From an uncultured Acidimicrobiaceae bacterium (GTDB lineage: Bacteria; Actinomycetota; Acidimicrobiia; Acidimicrobiales; Bog-793), in contig CAWAVB010000002.1 of assembly GCA_963785415.1 (NCBI GenBank), forward strand, positions 13,434 through 77,433: a stretch of DNA of 64,000 nt, read 5' to 3'. The notes beneath the pieces were generated by a model. The model was not told where the DNA came from. It saw nothing but the letters and a program-made list of their open reading frames with translations, and did not search any database. Position numbers and translations under genes: made by a program. This document shows positions 2,737-35,386 of the stretch, in pieces (the first letter of the stretch is position 1; each line of letters starts with the position of its first letter).

Positions 2737-3480
2737 GTGAGATCCTTCGCCCGACCAAGCATCCCGTGCCTCGTTCGTGTGCTCGCGTTCGGAACCGGCG
2801 CACTCGTCGTCTCTGCCGCTCTCGGAGTGTCGGCATCCGCCACGGTCAACACGACAAGCTCTGTTCTCAAAGCCACGAAAGCGGCGATCGCCAAACAGTC
2901 GAGCGTCCACCTCGTGCTCCAGGTGAAGCCGAACTCGACATCGAGCACCGAGAAGGTGACCGGCGATCTGGGGAAGAAGAACGGCGTCGAGTCCGTCTCG
3001 CTGGGCAAGTCAACCATCACGCTCAAGGTGAACTCCACCTTCGGCTACGTCGACGGGAACTCCTCTGGGCTGACCACGCTCTTCGGGCTGACCTCGGCAC
3101 AGGCCAAGAAGTTGGGCAAGGACTGGATGTCCTTGAAGGCCGGCTCGACCGAGTACTCGAACTTCGAATCCGGCCTCACGATCTCCTCGATCACGGGCGT
3201 GCTCCCCGCGGCCAAGGGAACGAAGCTGTCCACCGAGGTCGTCAAGGGGGCCAAGCTGTACGTCCTCAAGTGGACGACCGCAGCCACGAGCTCTACGCCG
3301 AAGTTGTCGGACACGCTGACCGTCTCGGCGGCAGGGGCGACCCTCCCGGTCGAGGTGACCATGACCGCCTCGGGCGGTGGCCTCGAGACGATCACGTTCT
3401 CCAAATGGGGCGAGCCTGTCGTCGTGAGTGCCCCGCCAGCCGGCTCGACGATCGCCTACTCCAAGATCACGGCCAAGTAG
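2737..3480 (+). CDS. Secreted protein, possibly LppX/LprAFG-like beta fold
   Basis: Signal peptide (..ALGVSASA), beta-rich Lys/Ser/Thr composition, C-terminal TITFSKWGEPVVVSAP pattern seen in LolA/LppX-like actinobacterial proteins. Confidence 0.6.
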   Translation: MRSFARPSIPCLVRVLAFGTGALVVSAALGVSASATVNTTSSVLKATKAAIAKQSSVHLVLQVKPNSTSSTEKVTGDLGKKNGVESVSLGKSTITLKVNSTFGYVDGNSSGLTTLFGLTSAQAKKLGKDWMSLKAGSTEYSNFESGLTISSITGVLPAAKGTKLSTEVVKGAKLYVLKWTTAATSSTPKLSDTLTVSAAGATLPVEVTMTASGGGLETITFSKWGEPVVVSAPPAGSTIAYSKITAK

Positions 3481-3627
3481 GTCCGCCGCTGTCGCTCAGC
3501 GAAAACACCTGGATCAACTAAGACCAGCGAAGCTCTTAGCCTCGTGACCGATCCGCACGATGGCTCACTCCATCGTCGGTAAACGCTGTGACGCTGCGTC
3601 CCCGCCCGACAGGGCGTCCTCCGCCTC

Positions 3628-6456
<2,829 letters not shown>

Positions 6457-6472
6457 CTTCGGAGGATACGGC

Positions 6473-8538
<2,066 letters not shown>

Positions 8539-30337: not shown

Positions 30338-30422
<85 letters not shown>

Positions 30423-30510
30423 GAGTATTCCCAGGTCAGTCCGATTAAAGTCGCCCAAATCGGGCGCTGTGGTCACAGCTTGGTCACAACCAGCGGGCTG
30501 GTCCTCTCGG

Positions 30511-31084: not shown

Positions 31085-31603
31085 GTGACAGGCACTCGCC
31101 CCATACCGGGTCCGTCTGTCGAGGTGGCGGCGTGGAATCAAATCAAGCACTGGATGCTCGCGGTCGAGACTCAGCACGAGCGCGTTATGGCTGGGCCGCC
31201 CGTCGGCCTTCCACGCGGCGAGGTGCCCAGAGTGCAGGCCGACATGACGCTTTACATCTTGGCCCTCTACCTCCTCCGACGTGCGGTCGTATTTGCGTCG
31301 AGAGAGGCGGCCGGTGGGGAAGCACTCCTCGAGGCAATCTCAGCATTCGACCAAGCGGTGCCGGACCTGATCTACACCCGCGACTTCATCGAGCACTTCG
31401 ATGACTGGGAACGGGGCGAGGGTCGCAGACAGTCTGTGGGCGAGGACTTTATTCGTGGGCTCGGCATGTCAACTATCGACGTGAGTTTCGGCCACGCGGG
31501 TCGCGGCATCGGCACCTTCGTATCGACTCCGGCCGCGCGGACTCTGTTCAATGCTGCCAGGGACGTTCTCGAACTTCTACCGCCTCAGTGGCGCAGACAG
31601 TGA
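31085..31603 (+). CDS. All-helical hypothetical protein with HEPN-like Rx4H motif (RDFIEH)
   Basis: Helical pattern, TRDFIEHFDDW; TACGCT -10 element 7 nt before the GTG (leaderless). Confidence 0.6.
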   Translation: MTGTRPIPGPSVEVAAWNQIKHWMLAVETQHERVMAGPPVGLPRGEVPRVQADMTLYILALYLLRRAVVFASREAAGGEALLEAISAFDQAVPDLIYTRDFIEHFDDWERGEGRRQSVGEDFIRGLGMSTIDVSFGHAGRGIGTFVSTPAARTLFNAARDVLELLPPQWRRQ

Positions 31604-31842
31604 CCACCGGAGCAGGAGAGTTCGAGCGACTGGTCGAGTTCCGAACTGAGCAGCGCGGGTATTTGGGCGCTACGGCGCGCGTGCGCCTACCTGTCCGAAT
31701 TCATCTCGCGATTGTCGGCAGCGAAACAACGCTGTGCGGTCGGAAACGCGCCGAGCTGGAAAAGGCCGAAGCCGAGGTCGGAGGGTACAGAGCGCTTTGC
31801 GTCGTGTGCCGAGGGGCCCGCACACGGATGGAGAATCCCTAG
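31600..31842 (+). CDS. Small zinc-binding-like protein (H..TLCG..CxxC)
   Basis: GTGA overlap with the upstream gene; IHLA..TLCG..CVVC. Confidence 0.6.
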   Translation: MTTGAGEFERLVEFRTEQRGYLGATARVRLPVRIHLAIVGSETTLCGRKRAELEKAEAEVGGYRALCVVCRGARTRMENP

Positions 31843-31850
31843 ACGTCTAG

Positions 31851-33529
31851 CTCTGATCGTTCACGAGACCGTGTGAGCTGACCGGCGCGTATCCGCGAAA
31901 AGGCCCTTCTTGCAGGGGAGACTGTTGTTGACAAAGCAACGTCCACCCCAACAAGAAGGGCACTTCCGAGATGGAAACTACCAGCGCGCGGTCGGTCGTC
32001 GTGGAACCCGGTGGAACGGGTGTCGTCGCTCACGTCGGGCTGCACTCTCTTTGTGCCTTCGCCGACCGGTTGGGCCTCGGTGATTCGCTCTCGTCCGCGA
32101 TCCCCGTTCGCGGTGAGCGCTCTCCGCTGCACGACCGCGGCAAGGTGCTCGTGCACCAGATGGCGGTGCTCGCCGGCGGCGGCGAGAGCTGCGCGGACGT
32201 CGAGTACCTCCGCGCCGAGGAGACGCTGTTCGGGTTCGTCCCCTCGGACTCGACGGTGTGGCGCACCTTCCACGAGATCGCACCGACGACGCGCGCCGCG
32301 CTGAAGGTGTCGCTCGCCGAAGTGCGGGAGAAGGTCTGGCGTCGTTTGGCAGCGACGACTGGGACCGATCCCGTTGTGCTCGACATCGACGCCTCTCTCG
32401 TCGAGGTCCACAATGAGGGGAAGGAGGGCACCGGCCCGAACTACAAGGGCGGGTATGGCTTCCATCCGCTCCTTCTGTTCGCGGACGCGACGGGCGAGGC
32501 GCTGTCTTCGATGCTGCGCCCGGGCAACGCGGGGGCGAACACCGTCGCGGACCACCTCGTCGTTCTCGACGAGGGCGTCGCCCAGTTGCCAGACGAGATC
32601 GCATCGGGGCACCACCTCGACGACGAGCGCTCCCTCGTCGGTCGCGAGGTCGTGATCCGCTCGGACTCGGCCGGCTGCACCGAGGACTTCCTTTCCGGAT
32701 GTCGGGCGCGCAACATCGGCTTTTCGGTCGTCGCGCGGCGAAACGCCCAGGTGGAGGCGGCGATCTTCGACGCGATCGGGATGGAAAAGTGCTGGGCCCC
32801 GGCGGTCCGCCAGGACGGAGAGCTGCGCGAAGGCGCGGCGGTGATCGAGCTCACCAGTCTGGTCGACCTGCCCGCCTATCCCGAGGGCACTCGCCTCATC
32901 GTCCGGCGTGAGCCGCTCCATCCCGGTGCGCAGCAGAGCCTCTTCCCCTCCTTGGAGTTCCGCTACTGGGGCTTCTACACCGACCAGGCCGGCGACCCCG
33001 TCGTCCTCGACGCCTTCATGCGCGCCCACGCGCACGTCGAGGAGCACATCTCGAGGCTGAAGGACTCCGGGCTCTGCCGCTTCCCGTTCTCGGATCTCGA
33101 GGCCAACAGAAACTGGCTCTTCGCCGTGTGCGCCGCAGCCGATCTCGTGCGCTGGTTCCAGCTGCTCTGCTTGGACGGTGACCTCCAGCTCGCCCGGCCG
33201 AAGGCGCTGCGGTGGTCGTTCTTCCACGCGCCGGGCCGCCTCGTCCGCTCGGCGCGTCGTGAGATCGTCCGCATCCTCGATGGCTGGCCGACGGCGGACG
33301 ACCTCCTCGCCGCCTACCGGCGCATCGCGCTTCTCACCTGACCGCCTCCACCCCGACGCGTCGGGCATCGGGTGGTCCTGTCGCGTCCATCCGCCAGCCG
33401 GGAGCGATCTGCACCGGCGAAATGGCGAGCGACTCCACGGCTGAGTTGCCGAAATCAGCAAACCTCGGTCGAGGGTCCGTTGCTCAATGCGCGGACAACC
33501 TGTTCAGGCATTCTCGTGAACGATCGGAG
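31851..33529 (+). mobile_element. IS1380-family insertion sequence, 1679 bp
   Basis: 18-bp IRs CTCTGATCGTTCACGAGA (31851-31868) / TCTCGTGAACGATCGGAG (33512-33529) with 1 mismatch; CTAG target duplication at 31847-31850 and 33530-33533. Confidence 0.92.
31971..33341 (+). CDS. IS1380-family DDE transposase
   Basis: VLDIDASLVEVH..GPNYKGGYGFHPL, IRSDSAG, HAHVEEHI..LKD..RFPF..ANRNW. Confidence 0.92.
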   Translation: METTSARSVVVEPGGTGVVAHVGLHSLCAFADRLGLGDSLSSAIPVRGERSPLHDRGKVLVHQMAVLAGGGESCADVEYLRAEETLFGFVPSDSTVWRTFHEIAPTTRAALKVSLAEVREKVWRRLAATTGTDPVVLDIDASLVEVHNEGKEGTGPNYKGGYGFHPLLLFADATGEALSSMLRPGNAGANTVADHLVVLDEGVAQLPDEIASGHHLDDERSLVGREVVIRSDSAGCTEDFLSGCRARNIGFSVVARRNAQVEAAIFDAIGMEKCWAPAVRQDGELREGAAVIELTSLVDLPAYPEGTRLIVRREPLHPGAQQSLFPSLEFRYWGFYTDQAGDPVVLDAFMRAHAHVEEHISRLKDSGLCRFPFSDLEANRNWLFAVCAAADLVRWFQLLCLDGDLQLARPKALRWSFFHAPGRLVRSARREIVRILDGWPTADDLLAAYRRIALLT

Positions 33530-33573
33530 CTAGGCATTTGCCGCGGCGTAGGCTCGGGACGAAAGGGGACACG

Positions 33574-33894
33574 ATGAAGATCGAATACTCCGGACCCCGA
33601 GGCGGTGCGGTGCAGCTGACCCGACACCTCGCCGACGCGGGGATCGAGATTGTCAAGCAAGAGAAGTCGTCGGGCGGCGGATTCGAGAAGCGCGGCGGAG
33701 TAGGCCCGGCGCCCGAGCCACTCGTGCACGTGACTTACATTCTCGGATGGATGGTCGGCGCGGGAGCAGCGGGAGAGATTGGTCGTCAGCTAATGAGTGC
33801 CGCCATTGAGGGGATAAAGGCGCGGGTCGAATCCGCGACTCATGGACGAGGGAAGATCACCGTGCGCGAGGAGGAGGAAGACGCCTCCGAATGA
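33574..33894 (+). CDS. 106-aa hypothetical protein with a central Gly/Ala-rich hydrophobic helix
   Basis: SD AAGGGG and TAGGCT -10 element upstream; clean ORF. Confidence 0.65.
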   Translation: MKIEYSGPRGGAVQLTRHLADAGIEIVKQEKSSGGGFEKRGGVGPAPEPLVHVTYILGWMVGAGAAGEIGRQLMSAAIEGIKARVESATHGRGKITVREEEEDASE

Positions 33895-33912
33895 CGGGCG
33901 CGCCGCAAAGTT

Positions 33913-33960
33913 CCTAGACGTCTAGGCGATTCGCCGTAGGTAGGCTCGCGGGGGAAGGGG
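33913..33960 (+). promoter_or_regulatory. Palindrome-promoter module CCTAGACGTCTAGG-N13-GTAGGCTCG..AAGGGG (second copy 31838-31850 + 33534-33568, split by the IS)
   Basis: Perfect 14-bp palindrome, TANNNT -10 element and SD, with the same 13-nt palindrome-to-GTAGGCTCG spacing in both copies. Confidence 0.75.
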
Positions 33961-33965
33961 TCACC

Positions 33966-34139
33966 ATGGCGAGATCACTCACGAGTCAGCTCTACCGGGC
34001 TGCGCGCTTTTCGAACAACCTCCGCGCCGCCTCGCGGGGTCCGGGCGCCTACGCGAAGCGGGTCGTGCGCCGGAAGGCTTACGGCCGGTCGATGGGGCTC
34101 ACTGGCTCGATCCTCAAAGCGTTTGGGCTGCGAAAGTAG
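33966..34139 (+). CDS. 57-aa highly basic small protein (not in the ORF track)
   Basis: MARSLTSQLYRAARFSNNLRAASRGPGAYAKRVVRRKAYGRSMGLTGSILKAFGLRK; SD AAGGGG 5 nt upstream. Confidence 0.7.
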   Translation: MARSLTSQLYRAARFSNNLRAASRGPGAYAKRVVRRKAYGRSMGLTGSILKAFGLRK

Positions 34140-34175
34140 CCGCACTCTCACCCCTCGCCCGCCGTTTGCGTCGAT

Positions 34176-34865
34176 CCTGGGGCATCCTGGGGGGAGGTGC
34201 GGCCCGTCGCCTGCACAGACAAGTGCAGGTCAGAGTAGGTAACACGAACGGAGGTCGACCGTTGACGAAGTTCGATGTCAGCGAAATGTCAACGGATGCC
34301 AACGACATCGCCCGGGCGGTCGGTCGCGTTGCCCTGAACTGGGCGCACCTCGAAGCGATGACTTCAATCACTCTGTGGACGCTCGCGAACCTTCCGAGGG
34401 TCAGCCTCGGAACCCTCCTGACTAACGGCGTCCCTGTCGCGACGCAGTGGGATCAGATTCAAGTTCTCCTGCATTCGACGAAGCAGGATGCCCTACTTGA
34501 GTGGTTTACGAGTTGGCGGTGCCAAGCAGCTCAGCTTCAAGGCAGCCGAAACGAGGCCGTCCATTCACAGTGGTTCCCCACCGGGGACCACGCGAGGCCG
34601 TTCGAGGCGTGGGACTTGCTGAGCAGAAAGGCGCGCGCCGACGCCCGACGCAACGTCATGCCGGGGGGCGTGACTGAGGTTGATGCGCTTGCGGACTCGA
34701 TCGCCGTCAGCTTTCGTGACCTGCAGAACTGGCTGCTAAAGGATGTCGCCGCGGCTCTTGGTCGAGTGACCGGTGACGACGAGATCTCGACTGTTCTGAC
34801 GTTCTGACCTCAAAGCCTCCAATTTTCCGAGGCGAGCTCACCCTGGGGCAACTTAGGGGGAGGTG
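34176..34865 (+). repeat. 24-bp imperfect direct repeats CCTGGGGCAwCyTrGGGGGAGGTG (34176-34199, 34842-34865) bracketing one gene
   Basis: 21/24 identical; each copy is followed by GCAGGTCAG (34225-34233, 34866-34874). Confidence 0.8.
34262..34807 (+). CDS. All-helical hypothetical protein with HEPN-like Rx4H motif (RNEAVH)
   Basis: AVGRVALNWAHLE N-terminal helix and SRNEAVHSQW; GGAGG 7 nt before TTG 34262. Confidence 0.65.
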   Translation: MTKFDVSEMSTDANDIARAVGRVALNWAHLEAMTSITLWTLANLPRVSLGTLLTNGVPVATQWDQIQVLLHSTKQDALLEWFTSWRCQAAQLQGSRNEAVHSQWFPTGDHARPFEAWDLLSRKARADARRNVMPGGVTEVDALADSIAVSFRDLQNWLLKDVAAALGRVTGDDEISTVLTF

Positions 34866-34870
34866 GCAGG

Positions 34871-35182
34871 TCAGGGCTGGCCGGTCTCCCGGCCACTGAG
34901 CACTGCGCCGCACGTCTCGCAAAGGGGCACGAGGTAGGGCTGAAAGCCGGACCCAAAATCAAGCTCCGACGAATCCGACAAGCCCGACCTATCGAGCCCG
35001 CATAACGTCTTCTCGTCAGTGCTCCATGCTCTGTGAAGTTTCACCGGGCCGCTCGTCTGGGTCGGATTGAACGTGAGGCCAGCACCACGCCTCACCGCGA
35101 CGAGGGGGCCGATCTTGACAAGGGTGTCGAGGTGGCGCGGTTTCGGGTCGGCTTGCTTGTCACGTTCCCGCTCGTCGCTCAT
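34871..35182 (-). CDS. Small zinc-binding-like protein (H..TLCG..CxxC)
   Basis: LHRA..TLCG..CETC; SD GGAGGGG and an upstream TACGGT -10 element. Confidence 0.62.
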   Translation of the reverse strand: MSDERERDKQADPKPRHLDTLVKIGPLVAVRRGAGLTFNPTQTSGPVKLHRAWSTDEKTLCGLDRSGLSDSSELDFGSGFQPYLVPLCETCGAVLSGRETGQP

Positions 35183-35362
35183 CGCCCCTCCCTTGCAGCC
35201 CGACCGTAGACCTCGAGCGCGTCGTGGTCACAACGCTGGTCACAAACGCGCCGTAATCGGCCGTCACCAGCCGTCACAGTTCCCGCTACGCGGCCCGGCG
35301 ATATGCTCTCTGACCTGCGACGACGGGACAAGGCGACACCAGCCGTCATGGACCTGACGGGA

Positions 35363-35386
35363 GTTCGAATCCCGCTCCGGGCACCG
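35363..35386 (+). repeat. attR-like duplication of the tRNA-Leu 3' end
   Basis: Identical to 30400-30423. Confidence 0.93.

Follow-up and report, generated by a model that had tools for sequence, protein, structure and literature searches.

The DNA analyzed here (hereafter, the window) is a stretch of 64,000 nucleotides from the genome assembly GCA_963785415.1 of an uncultured Acidimicrobiaceae bacterium (contig CAWAVB010000002.1, positions 13,434 to 77,433). Downstream of a tRNA-Leu(CAA) gene, it contains an island of small genes, among which are A1 and A2, encoding predicted helical proteins with an Rx4H motif, and B1 and B2, encoding small proteins with a shared H..TLCG..C..C motif (Table 1). 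A first-pass annotation of this DNA, which relied on the analogy with the HEPN-MNT (HepT-MntA) pairs, interpreted A1 with B1 and A2 with B2 as two copies of one system that consists of a HEPN effector and a zinc sensor or antitoxin. The coordinates of the open reading frames (ORFs), the RDFIEH and RNEAVH motifs, the overlap of A1 with B1 and the convergence of A2 with B2 are all correct in that annotation. We favor, with moderate confidence, a different explanation of the locus, namely a degenerate tRNA-Leu integrative island with unrelated cargo that includes a single-gene cassette, probably of the HEPN type (A2), two orphan paralogs (B1 and B2) and an orphan (A1), and does not represent one system.

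Table 1. Features of the tRNA-Leu(CAA) island and its ends (window coordinates)
Feature	Coordinates	Strand	Remarks
tRNA-Leu(CAA)	30338-30422	+	ARAGORN; Rfam tRNA, 60 bits; 3' end forms the left attachment repeat (attL core 30400-30423)
Tandem TGGTCACA(G/A) pair	30470-30489	+	just inside attL; candidate arm-type recombinase binding sites
Hydrophobic orphan ORF, 103 aa	30511-30822	-	no significant family match; gene callers of other assemblies place short + ORFs here
Orphan ORF, 56 aa	30896-31066	+	ends 18 nt before A1; GC3 0.86; also a gene call in other assemblies
A1, 172 aa, predicted helical	31085-31603	+	orphan; RDFIEH at residues 99-104
B1, 80-84 aa	31588 or 31600-31842	+	putative zinc site H39 C50 C71 C74; overlaps A1 stop; 84-aa gene call in L018
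Perfect 12-nt palindrome CTAGACGTCTAG	31839-31850	.	overlaps B1 stop; second copy at 33914-33925
IS1380-family insertion sequence	31851-33529	+	transposase 31971-33341 (NCBIfam NF033539, E = 2.4e-80; Pfam PF13701)
Orphan ORF, 106-118 aa	33538-33894	+	no family match
Very basic orphan ORF, 57 aa, MARSLTSQLYRAARFSNNLRAASRGPGAYAKRVVRRKAYGRS...	33966-34139	+	own palindrome/promoter unit; no family match
24-nt direct repeat, left copy	34176-34199	+	brackets the A2 cassette; copies 88% identical
A2, 181 aa	34262-34807	+	TTG start after GGAGG; RNEAVH at residues 96-101; standalone, unannotated family
24-nt direct repeat, right copy	34842-34865	+	between the A2 and B2 stop codons
B2, 103 aa	34871-35182	-	H50 C61 C88 C91; B1 paralog outside the A2 cassette
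Tandem TGGTCACAA x2	35225-35245	+	just inside attR; counterpart of the pair inside attL
attR	35363-35386	+	exact 24-nt copy of the tRNA-Leu 3' end; extended similarity over 38 nt at 89%

The final 24 nt of the tRNA-Leu(CAA) gene (GTTCGAATCCCGCTCCGGGCACCG) recur exactly approximately 4.96 kb away, a match that was not reproduced in any of 100 shuffles, and the two tandem arm-like pairs located just inside the ends account for 4 of the 6 matches of TGGTCACA(A/G) in the entire window. The exact tRNA repeat and the arm-like repeats therefore delineate a 4.96-kb island with att-like ends. The enclosed DNA is compositionally distinct, with the G+C content of the 30-35.4 kb segment at 0.63-0.69 compared to 0.70-0.75 in the high-G+C surroundings (0.71-0.75 in the flanks). 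The island ORFs show the coding-type order of G+C content across the three codon positions (GC1 > GC2 < GC3), with GC3 of 0.68-0.86 (0.68-0.76 for A1, B1, A2 and B2), below the value of ~0.92 in the flanking fabD and menC-like core genes. The tRNA island setting that had been noted previously is thus borne out by the tRNA gene, the exact 24-nt repeat and the compositional shift. No recombinase or integrase was found among the island ORFs, nor were excisionase or mobilization genes. The sole Pfam match among these ORFs is the DDE transposase of the IS1380-family element; scans of A1, B1, A2, B2 and the other island ORFs against Pfam, NCBIfam, PADLOC and PHROGs yielded nothing significant, and an Rfam scan of the island returned the tRNA alone, plus a sub-threshold small RNA match inside the insertion sequence. 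We propose that the segment 30423-35386 is what remains of a small integrative element, one that would have retained the att and arm-type repeats, lost the integrase and come under invasion by insertion sequences. It resembles the tRNA-linked integrative elements that lack a recombinase (remnants of cis-mobilizable elements) in the use of a tRNA 3' end as the site, the exact direct repeat, the arm-like repeats, the lower G+C content and the orphan cargo, and differs from them in encoding neither integrase, nor excisionase, nor mobilization proteins.

The A2 protein belongs to a family that has so far escaped annotation. A word-indexed search with A2 as the query retrieved only relatives with 85-99% identity, and a profile search run exhaustively over 1.84 billion representatives delineated 75 clusters at E <= 1e-3 (23 at E <= 1e-10), with 1-2 sequences per cluster. 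The members are standalone proteins of ~175 aa, those that have a name are all labeled 'hypothetical protein', and no additional domains were found in the longer ones. When 49 members, which are 19-40% identical to A2 except for one at 84%, were aligned, R96, N97, H101 and W104 (R-N-x3-H-x2-W) emerged as the sole invariant columns, whereby the conservation of Rx4H that the first-pass annotation had anticipated for A2 holds across the family and extends to two phage proteins, gp33 and gp34 of BillyTP. In addition, E31, within the helix-1 motif W..LE, is at least 90% conserved, and the consensus of the family reads GRVa.nWs.LE ... WR..a..L..RRN.aVHS.W. According to Anantharaman et al. (2013, PMC3710099), the HEPN active site consists of Rx4-6H, in which the arginine is directly followed by a polar residue, for the most part N, D or H, together with a conserved upstream acidic residue, typically in the context Ex3[KR], and the families that keep the motif are argued to be RNases. 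By comparison with this description, the A2 family possesses both the conserved Rx4-6H and the polar residue, N97, after the arginine, and arguably, with E31, the upstream acidic residue as well.

When the profile libraries were run on the 49 members and their consensus, the only recurrent Pfam matches were to HEPN families, all of them under the gathering scores: HEPN_Cthe2314, in the motif region (E = 0.044 with one member, 0.18 with the consensus), and HEPN_RiboL-PSP (E = 0.081). Searches against PDB sequences, with single sequences and with the family profile, detected coiled-coil noise only. The AF2 model of A2, built from a 3-sequence alignment, is all-helical and places the motif at the start of the helix 98-104, with a pLDDT of 41.8. 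The Foldseek matches of the A1 and A2 models were discarded as generic helical bundles, HepT appearing only at E ~1, and the comparison of the A2-family profile with a genuine AbiU2 HEPN protein (hhalign probability of 0.17%) used a single-sequence template and is thus uninformative. Because the evidence is at the level of the motif, the AF2 models are shallow and Foldseek returned nothing usable, we consider A2 a probable rather than a proven HEPN-superfamily RNase of a new, unnamed family.

A tblastn search of 50,697 phage genomes with the A2-family consensus identified one record, gene 34 of the Arthrobacter phage BillyTP (PP978841). The gp34 protein aligns with the A2-family profile over 138 columns (hhalign probability of 98.0%, E = 1.4e-13), with QRNSILHSVW on the motif, and gp33 is a second, diverged paralog (ARNGVIHTAW; probability of 97.5%, E = 5.8e-12). 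The genes for gp34, gp33 and gp32, the latter an 81-aa protein that, on reading its sequence, looks like a putative two-pass membrane protein, are transcribed together (positions 3471-4729 of the BillyTP locus, L027) and adjoin gp35, the helix-turn-helix protein gp36 and the tyrosine integrase gp37. In temperate actinophages, defense genes that are expressed from the prophage are commonly located beside the integrase. The integrase-proximal position in BillyTP is consistent with a defense role and makes gp34-gp33-gp32 a candidate three-gene prophage defense cassette. HEPN RNases act as dimers with a composite active site, and the tandem paralogs of BillyTP, followed by the small putative membrane protein, would fit a heterodimer, whereas the solo chromosomal A2 genes would fit homodimers. 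Under this model, A2 would act as a homodimeric, metal-independent RNase via R-N-x3-H.

The closest functional analog that we came across is gp57r of the mycobacteriophage Butters, a standalone protein of 194 aa with RDRCAHS at residues 94-99 that was shown experimentally to be necessary and sufficient for prophage-mediated defense and has no more than weak HHpred links to HEPN families (bioRxiv 10.1101/2023.01.03.522681). A2 is of similar size and shares with gp57r the R-D/N-x3-H-S motif at a similar position (residues 96-101 vs 94-99); like the A2 family, gp57r is a single-gene system found in a temperate actinophage. However, homology between the two is not demonstrable, with an hhalign probability of 2% against a single-sequence template even though the motifs align, and gp57r resides in a prophage, whereas A2, the function of which is predicted, is located in a cassette on a chromosomal island. 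There is also a resemblance to solo ('Other') HEPN proteins such as Cthe_2314 (PF18730), for which Anantharaman et al. (2013, PMC3710099) give the operon partners as 'None detected': they share with A2 the small size, the predicted helical structure, Rx4H with N after R, the upstream acidic residue, the lack of a fixed operon partner, and the mobile and defense-type associations. The A2 family is set apart from the solo HEPN families by the tryptophan at H+3 and the GRVa.nW..LE motif in helix 1, and its best match to them is at E = 0.044. By analogy with solo HEPN proteins such as Butters gp57r, and because of the motif, the behavior of the cassette and the phage location, A2 may be involved in abortive infection or defense.

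What survives of the earlier proposal is a rare, unannotated family of ~75 clusters, traced so far to metagenome-assembled genomes (MAGs) of Acidimicrobiales and one Arthrobacter phage. Should A2 be confirmed as an RNase and a defense gene, a compact solo HEPN system would be added to the defense repertoire of actinobacteria and actinophages, and a BillyTP lysogen would provide a cultivable test bed.

Eight genome loci of the A2 family (L010-L017) were recovered, all of them from Acidimicrobiales or Acidimicrobiaceae MAGs. The closest homolog of A2, from a SPRUCE peat MAG (L010), shows 84.5% amino acid identity and 91% nucleotide identity (dN/dS 0.48), and the DNA similarity between this locus and the window is restricted to positions 34203-34848. 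The similarity starts directly after the left copy of the 24-nt direct repeat and stops 7 nt into the right copy, a short distance before the B2 stop codon (34871). At the L010 locus (5822-6590), the cassette comes right after tRNA-Arg(TCT), with a tRNA-3'-like fragment in between; on its other side is an unrelated membrane-like ORF in convergent orientation. Because the similarity between the window and L010 ends between A2 and B2, the adjacency of these two genes is secondary: judging from the cassette boundaries, A2 is a single-gene cassette of ~650 bp that inserted next to B2, which owes its position beside A2 to the accident of this insertion.

The comparison of the other A2-family loci is in line with this view. 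Within +/-6 kb of the A2-family genes in the 8 genomes, tblastn at E <= 10 detected no B homolog, the motif H..[TSA][LIVM]CG..C..C is absent in any frame around these genes, and neither a B homolog nor the B motif was found in the BillyTP locus. An all-against-all comparison of the flanking ORFs of the eight genomes revealed no conserved neighbors of the A2 homologs at all. The first-pass annotation had staked its two-gene module on co-occurrence beyond this locus, and for A2 and B2 there is none, with a B gene present at 0 of the 9 A2-family loci outside this species.

The surroundings of some A2 homologs bear on the function of the family. At 2 kb from the homolog in L011 there is a bona fide HEPN_AbiU2 gene (positions 3250-4056, minus strand; PF18734, E = 1.8e-9), and the homolog in L012 has an IS21 element nearby. 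L011 also carries multiple copies of a gene for a Cys/His-rich protein of ~88 aa with the pattern C..F.VEPG.CW...ATHC...W.C.DH (4310-4576, 5591-5752 and ~6487-6750 (-)); one of the copies is convergent with the A2 homolog, and the family is unrelated to B1 and B2.

The other presumed HEPN protein, A1, is an orphan. A search of 5.8 billion proteins detected only homologs with 98-99% identity from near-identical strains, and no match was found in Pfam, NCBIfam, PADLOC, PHROGs, PDB, phages or IMG/VR. Because Rx4H arises by chance in 28% of the 172-aa windows of real proteins encoded in this stretch of DNA (and the expectation for Rx4-6H is 1.1 per 172 aa), the motif in A1 is within chance and carries no statistical weight. 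No homology between A1 and A2 was detected by BLASTP (E = 2.1) or by Smith-Waterman comparison, the score of which is under the shuffle mean; the alignment of A1 with the A2-family profile has an hhalign probability of 0.25%, and an unfiltered search of every ORF of the window with this profile (hmmsearch --max) recovered A2 as the one match, without A1. The single-sequence AF2 model of A1 has a pLDDT of 49.7 and gave only generic helical bundles in Foldseek (E >= 0.27), so that neither a profile nor a fold match connects A1 with HEPN or with the A2 family. Thus, of the two HEPN-like proteins that had been reported, A2 is supported, with its invariant RNxxxH and predicted helical structure, and A1 is not, having no detectable relation to the A2 family and carrying a motif within chance expectation.

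The B1 and B2 proteins are homologous to each other, with 37% identity over 46 aa (BLASTP E = 2e-6) and a Smith-Waterman score of 58 that was reached in none of 5000 shuffles (mean 24, maximum 53). The conserved positions include P-V-x2-H, E-x-T-L-C-G, R, L, G and L-C-x2-C, which vindicates the small-protein motif that the first-pass annotation had seen in both, including the H/C/C/C pattern. The same annotation had likened these proteins to DUF3039 (PF11238), the small actinobacterial zinc-ribbon proteins with which they indeed share the His...LCG...CxxC arrangement; the likeness ends there, given that neither DUF3039 nor any other zinc domain in Pfam matches B1 or B2 at E <= 1 and that they have no relatives in the databases searched. 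In six-frame scans of the window and L001-L017, the H..TLCG..C..C motif was found in B1 and B2 only, and the phage locus L027 contains none. B2 is present in 15 contigs, all of which represent the same island from near-identical strains; in the 5.8-billion-protein search, for which B2 was the query and B1 was not used directly, B2 found only itself. The profile of B1 and B2 detected nothing in a scan of IMG/VR or in two metagenome scans, and tblastn searches with B1 and B2 against phages, and with B2 only against plasmids, yielded nothing real. A weak match in the Halorubrum virus Humcor1 (E = 0.1) was rejected as spurious because it is antisense to an annotated 922-aa gene. Taken together, the alignment and the searches suggest that B1 and B2 are two old paralogs, versions of a small protein that is specific to the island and carries a putative zinc-binding site of the His-Cys3 type.

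The notion of the same pairing occurring twice does not withstand these comparisons. It is true that B1 and B2 are homologs, each of which adjoins a helical protein with an Rx4H motif near residue 100, that A1 and B1 overlap and that the best BLAST alignment of A1 with A2, a non-significant one, pairs the two Rx4H motifs. However, the B gene alone is repeated: A1 and A2 are not detectably homologous, the A1 motif is of the kind expected by chance, B genes are missing from all other A2-family loci, and the boundary of the A2 cassette runs between A2 and B2. Furthermore, A1 and B1 overlap in the same direction, whereas A2 and B2 are convergent, with a gap of 63 nt, and hence would not be co-transcribed. 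The resemblance to the type II/VII toxin-antitoxin systems of the HEPN-MNT (HepT-MntA) kind, in that the gene for a small HEPN-like protein has another small gene beside it, is offset by the absence of a nucleotidyltransferase partner and of any match to PF05168, DUF86 or NTP_transf, and by the lack of conservation of the A2-B2 arrangement. We therefore regard two copies of a HEPN effector with a zinc sensor or antitoxin as highly improbable. The apparent twin motif pairs came about through the insertion of a cassette and a chance Rx4H, which calls for caution in inferring systems from adjacency at a single locus.

The relationship between A1 and B1 deserves separate consideration. The two genes overlap by 4 nt (GTGA), or by 16 nt if B1 starts at the earlier GTG, and the gene arrangement suggests joint transcription of A1 and B1, probably with translational coupling, in an operon that is likely to begin with the 56-aa ORF upstream. 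It is conceivable that A1 and B1, perhaps together with this ORF, form a new two-gene module, for instance, a toxin and its zinc-ribbon antitoxin or the two halves of a split two-domain protein, with B2 as a solo paralog. Apart from the overlap of stop and start and the operon-like spacing, two variants in the population could be taken to support this idea. In one (L019; ENA ERZ25039544 contig_2190), a 1-nt insertion at ~31539 joins residues 1-151 of A1 in frame to B1, creating a single ORF of 252 aa; in the other (L022; ENA ERZ25039466 contig_1243), an IS256-family (Transposase_mut) element, flanked by an 8-nt duplication of 31502-31509, breaks A1 at residues ~140-142 and leaves B1 intact, which would be compatible with A1 being a dispensable toxin. 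However, the fusion allele may be an assembly error because L019 has a second indel at ~31884, 345 nt from the first, and four further assemblies match the window. From 31405 onward, the B1 frame is open, but alternative open frames of this kind are common at 63% G+C. A programmed -1 frameshift joining A1 to B1 was rejected given the absence of a slippery heptamer. Neither family nor fold evidence identifies A1 as a toxin, and there are no homologs with which co-occurrence could be assessed, the adjacency of A1 and B1 being seen in near-identical strains only. All considered, we view such a module as unlikely. A bolder version, in which A1 and B1 exemplify an unseen type of module (a helical Rx4H effector controlled by, or in some alleles fused to, a His-Cys3 zinc-ribbon partner, with B2 as a free-standing sensor or antitoxin) and the A2 family is a new HEPN clade functioning in abortive infection as a single gene or, in the phage, as tandem paralogs with a membrane protein, appears to be a long shot.

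A role of the B proteins that does not involve A1 or A2 is suggested by the cis elements of the island. The CTAG of the first CTAGACGTCTAG palindrome is where the IS1380-family element inserted, and each of the two copies of the palindrome precedes a similar promoter- and ribosome-binding-site-like stretch (33548-33576 and 33940-33968, respectively) that fronts a small orphan ORF (33538-33894 and 33966-34139). Judging from this arrangement, the palindrome with the promoter-like stretch looks like a shared operator-promoter unit, and the palindrome itself is a candidate operator. B1 and B2 could then be zinc-finger DNA-binding regulators or recombination accessory factors that act on the CTAGACGTCTAG palindromes or on the TGGTCACAA arm repeats, and not on A1 or A2. 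Both genes are confined to this element, which keeps the cis sites without an integrase; B2 is the gene nearest to attR and the arm repeats, the end of B1 falls within the palindrome, and the H/C/C/C pattern could be that of a zinc ribbon. The argument is purely positional, though, and the B proteins are not homologous to known families of excisionases, regulators or zinc fingers; we regard this role, a speculation from position, as unlikely and as equally plausible as a functional link between A1 and B1.

It follows from the variants described above that the island is in decay, or at the very least dispensable, in the population, and one may ask whether A1, B1 and the rest of the island ORFs amount to decaying or non-functional remnants of a dead element. 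The absence of an integrase, the insertion of two different insertion sequences and the frameshift allele in the population, the orphan status of all the ORFs and GC3 values of just 0.68-0.76 all fit this description. Nevertheless, the frames are intact in most assemblies, B2 is preceded by a strong ribosome-binding site (GGGAGGGG), and the similarity between B1 and B2 is retained at the protein level, with the putative ligands conserved after a long divergence. A dead element is accordingly a possibility to be taken into account, albeit not a probable one.

Several observations run counter to the explanation that we favor, a degenerate island in which a HEPN-type A2 cassette came to lie among unrelated cargo. 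A functional link within the cargo is hinted at by the overlap of A1 with B1 and by the allele in which a 1-nt change makes them one ORF, and relatives of the B proteins might have been missed, given that the protein databases were searched with B2 and not directly with B1 and that small proteins are under-called. With regard to A2, E31 is not followed by a conserved K or R four residues later, so that there is no clear Ex3[KR] context, and no significant profile or structure match in Pfam, NCBIfam, PADLOC, PHROGs or PDB ties the family to a known HEPN family. The AF2 models are of low confidence (pLDDT of 41.8 for A2 and 49.7 for A1), the best Foldseek match is at E = 0.27, and for A2 nothing in PDB is better than E = 2. 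In four of the genomes (L014-L017), the A2 homologs are located among ordinary genes (adenylate cyclase, LytR-family), and the defense context is therefore not general. Finally, the family was detected in 1 of the 50,697 phages, with no IMG/VR contig and no further viral members.

Some of these points would also fit an A2 family that consists of helical regulators, in which RN..H..W serves in ligand or protein binding and not in RNA cleavage: the lack of a significant HEPN profile or structure match and the location of several members among housekeeping-type genes are what one would expect of such proteins. Against this stand the invariance of R, N and H at the HEPN spacing together with the upstream acidic residue, the fact that the sole recurrent Pfam matches, weak as they are, are to HEPN families, and the mobile-cassette behavior and prophage location. 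On this evidence, we judge a regulator without RNase activity to be an improbable alternative to the HEPN-type A2 cassette.

The insertion sequence between B1 and the downstream part of the island shows the features of the IS1380 family, namely the transposase, the terminal inverted repeats and a short target duplication. The terminal inverted repeats of 17 nt are at 31851-31867 and 33513-33529, and the CTAG target duplication lies outside the element, within the palindrome (31847-31850 and 33530-33533); the inverted-repeat arms of 22 nt (31847-31868 and 33512-33533, 95% identity) take in the CTAG. The leader of this element contains, on the minus strand (31859-31968), a sub-threshold Rfam match to the actinobacterial small RNA Ms_IGR-7 (34.8 bits compared to a gathering score of 45; E = 2.8e-4), which coincides with a 32-nt imperfect inverted repeat at 31896-31968.

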